Shown here: positions 25,301-28,300 of the stretch, one piece after another
Layout of the letters: the number at the start of each line of letters is the position of its first letter
Position numbering within the stretch: position 1 is the first letter of the stretch
Origin: Schmidtea polychroa
Lineage: Eukaryota
Direction of reading: 5' to 3'
NCBI GenBank assembly: GCA_044892525.1
Contig: CM097885.1
Coordinates: 9,922,001-9,986,000, forward strand
DNA length: 64,000 nucleotides
Notes under the pieces: generated by a model
Database searches by the model: none
The model's input: only the letters and a program-made list of their open reading frames with translations
Told to the model about the DNA's origin: nothing
Translations under genes and position numbers: made by a program

Positions 25301-28300
25301 GTGCTCAATTTGTATATAAAGACTAATTTTCATAAATGATTTAATAATGTTAGCAAATATAAATTATTGAGGAAATTTTGATGTATCGAATATGAGGTTC
25401 CCACCAGGGAAACCCCAGCAAATTATCGATAGAAGCGGGAAATATCCGATAATATTTTTCAAGACTGGTAAATGCAGAATCATGGGATGTAAGAAACCTT
25501 TGGATATTAATAAATTACAATATCGAATAAATAATATTATAATCCAATCAATTACCGTTACTATGGATATGGGACATAGTATCAATCTATATAACATGTC
25601 GAAAAAATGTGATTGTATGTTTGAACCGGAATTGTTTCCGGCACTAAGACTATTAAAATATAACCCTATATGTGTCAACGTGTTTGCTAGTGGAAAGGTT
25701 GTCATGTTGGGGTTGAGAAATTTGGAGTATAGAGAATTTGTTGACAAGGTTCGAAATGAGATAATTTCATTGGTCGATTTCTAATTGGTTAATTTCTAAT
25801 TGGTTATTGATTGATTTAAACAAACGGTTTTTTGTTTAGGATTCATTTATTTCACTATGTACAAAATTCCGAGCGCCGCGAATCTCATGAAGGATATTGA
25901 TGATTATGGTAAATTTAAAATTTTTATTTTCACATTTTTTTATATTTATTATTTTAGAAAAATATTTAGAAATAATGATTAATAGGATAAAATATTATTA
26001 TCCGCAAATTGCTGAAGTAATCAAAGATCGGGAACCAGAAATCATACCAGATTTGATTTTTTATGCCACGCAAATTAGAATAATGGAGGTCTTTCATCAA
26101 TTTTTATGGGATGTTAAGATCAACAGAACAATGAAGCAAATGGAGCCGGAGTACCAATGCATCATCGGATGCTCATGCTGTGCCGATCGATATCGGCGAT
26201 ATGTCGAATGGGAGTTAGTGAAAACTCTGAGAAGGTTTCACTACTCCCGGATTGTAGATTTAGGTTACCAATAAATGTATTTTTTATTGTGTTTTATCTT
26301 TTTTATATTTGAAATAATAATAGTAATAATAATAATAATAGAAATAGTAATAATAAAACATTAATAATAATAATAATAATAATAATAATAGAAATAATAA
26401 AACATTAATAATAAAACATTAATAATAATAATAATAATAATAGAAATAATAAAACATTATTAATAATAAAACATTAATAATAAAACATTAATAAAAATAA
26501 TAGAACATGTGACAATGCAACATCAATGCATTTTGAATGCAATTTAAACAAAGACATGCTATAATCTGATTGGTTGATAGGCATGAGTCAAAGGTATAAA
26601 AACCCTGTAACATTTAAATTTATTCATTATTCACGATGACCAAGAAAATTTCAAGCACCGAAAAACCTAAAGAAATGGTACAACCAGTTCAAATGGTACA
26701 ACCAGTTCAAATGTTCCACAACTACAAAATGTATTTTTTGAAAGAAGAAATCAATATGAAATTGGTTGCACCAGTCAAGCTAATTCCAACTAAATTTGAA
26801 TTCTTATCCGGCACGCTTTCAATGATTGATGTCAAAACTATTAATGATGTTTTTAAACGGATAGATTCGAATCTATCGTGTAATCAACATGCGTGGTTCA
26901 ACAATAGATATGCAAGATTTTATGATGCTTTTGATGAAATCAGTTTCAAAGAAAATGAAAATTGGTATATAACAATTGCAATCCAGGGATATAAAGTTGA
27001 TAATAATGATGTATATTCTCCTATTTGGAAAATTATGTCTGCTAGACTTTCACAAATATTTTAATGTTATATTTAATAAATGTATTAGTCAGATTTGTTT
27101 TTTTCTTTATTAATTGCAACATAAATGCAAATGACATGCAAATTTAACAAAGAAAATCTATAAACAAACTTATAATATAGTTTTAAAGTGATGAAAATGA
27201 CTGCAGAAAAAGGTTAACATGATTAATTAATTACCGAATTATTTATTATTTAGAATTTTTAATCAACTTTTTGTTGGAAAAGTTAGCAGAAATATCTGGT
27301 GTGAAAATTGAGGACATATTATCTATTACAAATGCCTTAAATATCGGCTGGTTAGTTGAGAGTCAAGATACAGGATTTGATGATGAGGAAGAAACTCAAG
27401 AAATTGATGAGGAAGAAACTCAAGAGGAAATCTATGAACCTATAGATGAACCTATAGAGGAACCTATAGAGGAACCTAAAGATGAATCTAAAGATAATAT
27501 TACGAATGATTGTATTGATCATGTCGTTGAAAATATAATGAAATGTGGAGATGAAGACTGCGAATGTGTTAATTAATAAATCTTAGTTAATTAGTGTTTG
27601 TAAATTTATTTAAAATTTTATTTAAAAATCAAACAAAATAACTATATTAATTTTTATTTAAAAAACCGACATAAAACATACAAAATAGCAACACCTGTTG
27701 CAAGTTTTAAATAGTTTTTAAATTTGATTTTCTGTTGATCTATTTCCTTGGCATTTCTGGCGAGTTGATTCAGCACGCCCCATCCGCCATTGGCTTCAAT
27801 CCATGGCTGAAACTTTGACTTGATTATCTAGAAAATAAATATTAATAAAATATAGATTATAAAAGTATTACTTCTTGAGACCACTGATAATAATGTTCAG
27901 AGTCCCATAGACTTCTTTCCATTATTATCTTCATATAAGCGAACCCTACTAATATTCGGGTCCACTTCATCTCCTCGTCGCATAAGCAGTTAAAAATCCT
28001 ATTAAAATAGAATTTCTTCGTTTCGATGGAATCGGAATCGAGCACGTCCTCATAATCTTTTCGGTCCGATCGACCAGGAAACTTAGGCTTTCCATAATAT
28101 TCTTGTTGACGAGTTCTTTTAAAAGATTTTCCATAAAATGAGACATTTTTACAATAATTTAAAATATGATGTTTTATTTATACTAATACTGTATGATTTT
28201 GATTGGTTGATAGACTATAAATGTAAAAGAAAGGTTTTGATTTGATACACCATGAAAACTATATTCATAATGCTAATTATTATAACGAGTGTGTGCTCAC

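Follow-up and report, generated by a model that had tools for sequence, protein, structure and literature searches.

A two-exon Bcl-2-like gene within a Maverick element of the planarian Schmidtea polychroa

The stretch of DNA analyzed here, hereafter the window, comprises 64,000 nucleotides of the Schmidtea polychroa genome (GenBank assembly GCA_044892525.1, contig CM097885.1, forward-strand positions 9,922,001 to 9,986,000) and is AT-rich, with a GC fraction of 0.20–0.35. It contains an adintovirus-like element of the Maverick/Polinton type, about 19.6 kb in length (window positions ~10,764 to 30,362), which is bounded by terminal inverted repeats (TIRs). The first gene inside the right TIR, on the minus strand, directed inward and separated from the repeat by ~530 bp, is a Bcl-2-like gene; it is located between both TIRs and is present at all 19 sister loci that were fetched from the 781-Mb assembly, which has four very large contigs. 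Taken as a whole, the locus is in our judgment very probably a viral Bcl-2 gene borne by a Maverick, with two exons and a tail-anchored product whose most likely role would be pro-survival.

The gene is read from the minus strand throughout. Specifically, exon 1 (27872–28146; 275 nt in the window, as compared with 297 nt or 99 codons in intact copies) encodes helix 1, the BH3-region helix and the BH1 motif (KWTR). It is followed by a 44-nt intron (27828–27871) that is AT-rich, has GT..AG ends and carries a T-rich tract before the AG, and then by exon 2 (27654–27827), whose 57 codons and stop specify BH2 (PWIEANGGW), a linker, and a C-terminal hydrophobic tail anchor with basic residues. A TATA-box-like motif, TATAAATA (28175–28182, minus strand), sits 36 nt upstream of the ATG and is invariant in 11 of 11 aligned copies, and a polyadenylation-signal-like AATAAA hexamer (27653–27658, minus strand), also invariant in the aligned copies, overlaps the stop codon. 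This arrangement bears out an earlier note on this DNA, which had read the gene from an ATG at 28146, through a 44-nt intron at 27871–27828, to an end at 27654. As that note had also described, removal of the intron produces an in-frame join of ...YYQWSQE to IIKSKFQPWIEANGGW..., and the C-terminus forms an anchor in which hydrophobic LATGVAILYVLCRFF is followed by basic residues (best 15-residue Kyte–Doolittle mean, 1.94). The list of open reading frames (ORFs) in the window holds only pieces of the gene, namely 59 aa (27967–28146), 62 aa (27857–28045) and 40 aa (27654–27776).

Sister copies were drawn from a DNA search of the genome in which 40 matches out of 1738 first-look candidates were scored; 19 loci were fetched, and 10 of these were aligned with the window. 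Every one of the 19 has an open exon 1, GT..AG intron ends, and an open exon 2 with its stop codon, and in a representative intact sister the two exons comprise 99 codons (P0001) and 57 codons (P0002). A six-frame search revealed at least 150 copies of exon 1 in the genome (150 scored of 2421 candidates), all of them at least 93% identical. Stop-free frames were seen in 143 of the 150 scored matches, a fraction that is biased upward because the scored matches are the best-scoring ones.

The window copy itself is a pseudogene. Its ATG frame runs for only 59 codons before a stop at 27967–27969, a break that the earlier note had ascribed to a one-base error in the A run at 28061–28058. The note had suggested that sister copies be checked for such a homopolymer indel, and what they hold instead is 22 extra bases. 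All 19 fetched loci align over 623 bases, versus 601 in the window, and the window and the 10 sister copies aligned with it differ in length at one place only, directly following the A run, where the window has a gap of 22 bases. This gap (28051–28058, minus strand) is flanked by a 6-bp direct repeat, within which its placement is ambiguous, and the deletion junction has a single occurrence in the 781 Mb, which is the window itself. The sister alignment and the genome-unique junction rule out that the frameshift stems from a homopolymer sequencing error; an assembly artifact may lie behind the 22-bp deletion. The deletion takes away the end of the BH3-region helix (helix 2) and shifts the frame, leaving at most a 59-aa fragment. 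The 149-aa product reconstructed earlier therefore has to be replaced, as intact copies encode 99 + 57 = 156 aa, with seven residues closing the BH3-region helix that are absent from the reconstruction. Outside the deletion, the window copy differs at four of its 601 bases from what most of the 10 aligned copies have, one of these differences being common to one sister; it is accordingly a young copy.

With respect to the intron, the placement of the splice junction is confirmed by homology to a cellular protein. The nearest named relative is the UniRef entry C9WPR4_SCHMD (P0009), 'Bcl2-like protein, Schmidtea mediterranea', for which a match to the Pfam Bcl-2 family (PF00452) is precomputed. 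Residues 10–99 of exon 1 (P0001) align without a gap to residues 37–126 of this protein (E 1e-9), and residues 1–52 of exon 2 (P0002) align without a gap to residues 127–178 (E 5e-10), so that the two exons abut exactly at residues 126/127. Moreover, the length of the intron differs among Maverick subfamilies, being 44 nt in A (the subfamily of the window), 45 nt in C, and 48 or 51 nt in B, where the difference corresponds to one TTA repeat unit. This variation from 44 to 51 nt indicates that the intron is free to vary in length irrespective of the reading frame, and the exon ends, flanking codons and GT..AG are conserved across subfamilies A, B and C. Spliced products, made in script, have no internal stop. 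The public ORF calls of this family (P0003–P0008 and P0010) run into the intron and stop there, and it is in this sense that the gene has been hidden. A word-index protein search with exon 1 returned two clusters, both of which are intron read-throughs, and no spliced or named protein.

The earlier proposal of a Bcl-2-family gene with a short intron inside a Maverick is upheld by matches to PF00452 and by the colinear planarian Bcl2-like protein. In a genome scan with PF00452 (150 scored of 909 candidates), subfamilies B, C and D reached 34.5, 33.8 and 33.5 bits, all over the curated cut-off of 31.4 bits; the introns of B and C happen to keep frame, and the matches of these two span profile positions 6–100. 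Paralog D scored 32.7 bits as a protein (E 1.1e-7), and one copy of the window subfamily, in which a 14-nt deletion of its own puts both exons in one frame, scored 30.8 bits. For the public ORF call P0004, PF00452 is the sole Pfam match (E 0.0044). The spliced subfamily A product and a host ORF of this genome, L032, which scores 46 bits against PF00452, align across the junction in 106 columns free of gaps, with 28% identity (E 5e-17 in a 7-sequence database). On a hidden Markov model of Pfam-positive natural ORFs the same product scores 51.0 bits, and the best of 1000 shuffles scores 10.9.

Taken separately, the two exons have profiles that lead to successive portions of Bcl-2-family proteins in the PDB, although the exon-1 matches, given below, are not significant. 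When the exon-2 profile was compared with the PDB, all 60 listed matches were to Bcl-xL or Bcl-2 at BH2 (best E 0.016), with PWIEANGGW aligned to Bcl-xL residues 185–211. A profile that includes the host rows matched Bcl-xL best (E 2.3e-10) and also Bax (E 4.6e-8); it retrieved 129 proteins at E≤0.001 among 1.84 billion representatives, and the 14 of these that were inspected include flatworm-like and vertebrate Bcl-xL-like proteins. An AlphaFold model of exon 1, built from a 60-row alignment, comprises six helices with a predicted local distance difference test score (pLDDT) of 86.9. The full-length model of paralog D has a pLDDT of 72.8, and the Foldseek matches listed for it are exclusively Bcl-2, Bcl-xL and Bak (best E 5e-3, probability 1.00, TM 0.5–0.6).

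BH1 reads KWTR in place of the canonical NWGR and is situated at the start of helix 5; when 60 sequences, cellular Bcl-2 proteins among them, are aligned, its W69 and R71 stand out as the two columns with almost no variation. The earlier note had regarded WTR as a special feature that might alter BH3-ligand specificity. At this site the nearest host relative reads WSR and paralog D reads WSK, and the change of the BH1 glycine is therefore a lineage trait as opposed to a Maverick novelty. BH2, encoded in exon 2, is canonical (W..NGGW). The BH3-like helix of the earlier description corresponds to helix 2 (model residues 15–34), in which L21..L24-V25-D26 aligns with L..A-G-D of Bcl-xL, the small residue being replaced by V. 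The C-terminal anchor (LATGVAILYVLCRFF followed by K) is colinear with the hydrophobic tail of C9WPR4_SCHMD.

The relationship to host proteins extends beyond these motifs. C9WPR4_SCHMD is 87% identical to its ortholog L032, a single-copy gene of the present genome that has no Maverick genes within ±10 kb. Both host proteins are colinear with the Maverick product over nearly its full length, tail anchor included, at 24–31% identity, and host and Maverick proteins share a small polar residue in the position of the BH1 glycine. The host protein is longer by 12 residues at its N-terminus and by a 15-residue insert that follows the first conserved helix. The gene structures also differ. L032 has an intron of ~2.97 kb directly after the GGW of BH2, whereas the Maverick gene has no intron at that position and carries its own 16 codons upstream; paralog D is intronless. 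Given an intron located elsewhere than that of the host and a paralog without one, the simplest history would be that a processed copy from a host lineage was captured and that the ancestor of A, B and C subsequently acquired the intron. In the tree, A, B and C form a clade with support of 100/100 that groups with D and the host Bcl2-like proteins at 36/83, and monophyly of the Maverick sequences (A–D) appears in 13% of bootstrap trees. As their nearest relatives are cellular Bcl2-like proteins of flatworms, the Maverick genes were probably captured from a host lineage.

In subfamily B the gene lies between the same two flanking ORFs as in the window, in an element whose presumed PolB is 52% identical to that of the window, and the paralog D gene is also flanked by Maverick genes. 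As judged from codon comparisons, the gene is under purifying selection across subfamilies, the ratio of nonsynonymous to synonymous rates (dN/dS) being 0.156 for A–B, 0.063 for A–C and 0.145 for B–C, values that are rough because dS is saturated at 1.2–1.8. Within the window subfamily, 18 sister copies compared with one other (L002) show 14 synonymous and 19 nonsynonymous codon differences, so that purifying selection is clearer between subfamilies than within one.

Several further observations on these relatives were made in passing. Paralog D (L037:778-1209, minus strand) is a 144-aa intronless ORF, with at least seven further scan matches having 152-aa open frames; it resembles the host Bcl2-like gene (41% identical across 112 columns) more than it does the window subfamily, and it adjoins a PolB 51% identical to that of the window. 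The subfamily C copy at L046/L047 (G000:C1:203690500-203710499) is rearranged and palindromic, with PolB fragments and three small plus-strand ORFs occurring twice in mirror orientation. Apart from Mavericks, a canonical host Bcl-2 gene (NWGR, 68 bits to PF00452) is present seven times in nearly identical form within ~0.9 Mb (L021–L027; G000:C4, 89.9–90.8 Mb), which represents either amplification of this cellular gene, tandem or segmental, or an assembly duplication.

In terms of function, the 156-aa product would consist of a Bcl-2 helical-bundle core with a C-terminal tail anchor, and would be expected to insert in the mitochondrial outer membrane or the endoplasmic reticulum; membrane targeting is predicted from the sequence of the product. 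There it may bind BH3 helices of host death effectors and so restrain the Bak/BH3-only pathway, which could prolong the survival of the cell during expression or replication of the element. A Bak/Bcl-2/cytochrome c pathway is present in planarians, according to a review (PMC8998228). We lean toward a pro-survival direction of action, with somewhat better than even confidence, because Bcl-xL and A1 are the best matches and because the nearest relative goes by the name 'Bcl2-like'.

Against this reading as a whole stand a number of points, several of which concern exon 1 when taken alone. PF00452 is the sole Pfam match of intact exon 1 at E≤10, and at 16.5 bits (E 0.013) it falls below the cut-off; the 62-aa and 57-aa pieces of the window copy itself match no Pfam family at E≤1. 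(Intact exon 2 likewise has no Pfam family at E≤10.) Against the PDB, the exon-1 profile has a best E of 0.085, which is not significant by itself. Bcl-2-family names account for 12 of the 21 matches listed, with A1/BFL-1 first, and the top eight are seven Bcl-2-family chains and 3qbr, whose entry name (SJCHGC06286 protein) is uninformative; the remaining matches, at similar scores, are falcipain, NAA50 and inositol-phosphate synthase. Foldseek with the exon-1 model gives a best E of 0.55 and nothing at E≤0.001, all listed matches being to the Bcl-2 family. VIA-align superimposes the model on Bcl-xL with Z up to 9.8 (for 4qve_A, Z 8.8, rmsd 1.9 Å over 82 residues), values that lie below the Z of ~13 under which matches between helical bundles can arise by chance. 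The glycine of BH1 is replaced by T in the window subfamily. The support for splicing in vivo is comparative, which makes it an inferred step, and the spliced 156-aa form was not found among the database proteins of the family, all of which are read-through ORF calls. The saturation of dS mentioned above belongs here as well, as does the tree, in which the grouping with host Bcl2-like proteins at 36/83 leaves the source of the gene unsettled. Finally, the same evidence would fit a pro-survival, a pro-death or a non-apoptotic role alike.

The first alternative is accordingly a pro-death, pore-forming role resembling that of Bax or Bak, in which the element would make mitochondria permeable or lyse the cell, perhaps to release particles. 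Bax, Bak and the pro-survival members are alike in fold and motifs and all occur among the matches, Bax included, and helix 2 contains the BH3-like L..LVD segment. Nonetheless, pro-survival members come out on top in three profile comparisons (Bcl-xL with the host-inclusive profile and with exon 2, A1/BFL-1 with exon 1), the nearest relative is named only 'Bcl2-like' by its source, and at least 150 mostly open copies of a killer gene would be costly. We consider this role unlikely.

Slightly less likely still is that the Bcl-2 fold serves a non-apoptotic job, such as a poxvirus-like block of innate immunity or restraint of Beclin and autophagy. Viral proteins with a Bcl-2 fold and other targets are well established, and the departure of the BH1 WTR from NWGR could be read in this way. 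The poxviral Bcl-2-like proteins that block immune signaling, however, are without recognizable BH motifs, whereas the Maverick gene retains the W and R of BH1, a canonical BH2 and the tail anchor; its relatives reach the Pfam Bcl-2 cut-off, and a host relative has a G-to-S change at the same BH1 position. That the locus is a passive fragment of a host gene or a set of chance ORFs without function, with the 'intron' as a gap between unrelated ORFs, is barely credible, for although the window copy is broken and public gene callers stopped inside the intron, dN/dS is 0.06–0.16 between subfamilies, synteny holds in an element whose PolB shares only 52% identity, the exon ends abut exactly on the host homolog, GT..AG and the flanking codons are retained in introns of 44, 45, 48 and 51 nt, and 19 of 19 sister copies are open.

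A viral, pro-survival Bcl-2 gene, the reading that we prefer, has precedents among known systems. The herpesvirus proteins BHRF1 and M11 and the asfarvirus protein A179L are viral Bcl-2 proteins of large DNA viruses. The Maverick product resembles them as a virus-carried, tail-anchored homolog presumed to block host apoptosis, and the fowlpox protein FPV039 is among the exon-1 profile matches, although not significantly so (E 0.38). It differs from them in its carrier, a Maverick that integrates and has hundreds of copies in the germline, and in that its function is predicted only.

The earlier note had compared the gene to adenovirus E1B-19K. The adenovirus lineage is related to Mavericks through capsid, protease and PolB, and E1B-19K may be likened to the present product as a Bcl-2-like survival factor. 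This comparison holds as a possible functional analogy and not as a link in sequence: the nearest relatives are flatworm cellular Bcl-2-like proteins, and no match to the E1B-19K family profile was obtained when both exons were scanned against Pfam-A at E≤10. The grouping with cellular flatworm proteins therefore argues for an independent capture over an ancestral viral gene held in common with E1B-19K.

Closer to the present case, Bcl2 and IAP homologs have been observed in adintoviruses (Starrett et al. 2021 Virus Evol, section 3.2; PMC8502044). The occurrence of Bcl2 in the adintovirus/Maverick class is thus already in print, and the planarian spliced case adds to it. The likeness to the adintoviruses of that section lies in an accessory gene of the anti-apoptosis type and in the company of an adenain, an A32-type ATPase and a chromodomain integrase. 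The account given there describes no flatworm case, gene structure or intron, whereas the window Maverick gene is spliced, is located at the end of the element, and is found in several subfamilies, with at least 150 copies in the genome. In the open-access full-text literature we did not find any account of a Bcl-2 gene in a planarian Maverick, of its intron or of how many copies exist, and the passages of open-access planarian papers that mention Mavericks or Polintons contain nothing on Bcl-2.

A second class of planarian mobile elements has been associated with this family. A BCL2-like motif is mentioned for the giant gypsy-like long terminal repeat retrotransposons known as Burro (Grohme et al. 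2018, as cited in Arkhipova & Yushenova 2019, PMC6431247). In the present genome, a Burro-like Bcl-2 domain is seen inside ORFs of up to ~3050 aa with ~29 bits to PF00452, at L038 (G000:C1:6410000-6419999), L040–L042 and dozens more matches of the PF00452 scan. This domain differs from the Maverick gene in being part of a giant polyprotein, in its degenerate BH1 (GVNRDK) and its PWIKLKGGW BH2, in the absence of a tail anchor directly after BH2, and in its very long, unresolved branch in the tree. Two unrelated classes of mobile element in this genome, Mavericks and Burro, hence carry Bcl-2 modules.

These findings allow a broader scenario, which we regard as improbable but worth stating. Mavericks and Burro may each have taken up a Bcl-2 survival module, the processed copy in Mavericks later gaining its intron of 44–51 nt, and the open copies, numbering in the hundreds, could form a pro-survival reservoir that is switched on when silencing by PIWI-interacting RNAs (piRNAs) lapses in differentiation, shifting the death thresholds of tissues. 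Polintons of S. mediterranea are repressed by SMEDWI-2 piRNAs and are de-repressed upon smedwi-2 knockdown and in differentiation (PMC8532177). Since planarians rely on controlled apoptosis and silence Polintons through PIWI, Bcl-2 genes of such elements are plausible modifiers of cell survival.

The locus offers a well-delimited example of a virus-like transposon with a host-derived regulator of cell death that is spliced, selected and present in at least 150 copies. It also illustrates how annotation based on ORFs overlooks short spliced accessory genes in Mavericks. Moreover, the position of the intron, unlike that of the conserved host intron at BH2, makes the gene a small and clean case with a bearing on intron gain in a mobile element.

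The remainder of the element is typified by its terminal repeats and a set of larger ORFs. The left TIR (approximately 10764–11991) and the right TIR (approximately 28678–30362) were delimited by an inverted-pair repeat search and by blastn of the flanks, together with the end sequences in the case of the right arm; blastn of flank against flank gave 24 high-scoring segment pairs between 10764–11991 and 28678–30362. Both arms are composed of many tandem units of ~31 nt (...TTTTCAAGGTCATTTAAACAAAGACCATGACTCAT...), short units of this kind making up most of the left arm, and the right arm has the larger number of units. A segment of the left arm (11592–11828) recurs in inverted orientation inside the element at 19651–19867.

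A 1319-aa ORF (13286–17245, minus strand) is presumed to encode a protein-primed PolB, on the strength of an AGDTDSFF motif in its translation, and is 51–52% identical to large ORFs beside the B and D Bcl-2 genes. The PolB label is presumptive because Pfam gave only a weak Endonuclease_7 match for this ORF. Also on the minus strand are genes for an adenain-like cysteine protease (19898–20365; Peptidase_C5, E 6.4e-6, 26.4 bits over a cut-off of 21.3), a retrovirus-like integrase with a C-terminal chromodomain (22892–24061; rve, E 1.1e-5, at 26 bits below its cut-off of 32.6; Chromo, E 0.0014), and a packaging ATPase of the A32/FtsK type (24621–25247; Pox_A32, E 2.5e-7, 30.9 bits over a cut-off of 22.8).

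Two smaller ORFs of the element lie near its ends. Just inside the left TIR, a 163-aa ORF (11984–12475, minus strand) has a C-terminal RING finger of the IAP/MDM2 type (zf-C3HC4_3, E 4.5e-9, 36.4 bits, over the cut-off); a BIR domain was not found in this ORF. With the RING ORF and the Bcl-2 gene at opposite ends, the element may carry two modulators of cell death or ubiquitin, a pairing that echoes the remark on 'Bcl2 and IAP' in the section of Starrett et al. 2021 (PMC8502044) cited above. Divergent from the Bcl-2 gene is a 156-aa ORF without a Pfam family (28252–28722, plus strand), whose N-terminus resembles a signal peptide, whose middle resembles a coiled coil and whose C-terminus is hydrophobic; several N-x-S/T sites are also present. 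At the same position in subfamily B this ORF is 77% conserved, and its product is possibly a membrane or secreted accessory protein. Outside the Maverick, the window also contains a fragment of a pogo/Tc5-type DDE transposase (7387–7785, minus strand; DDE_1, E 9.1e-11).

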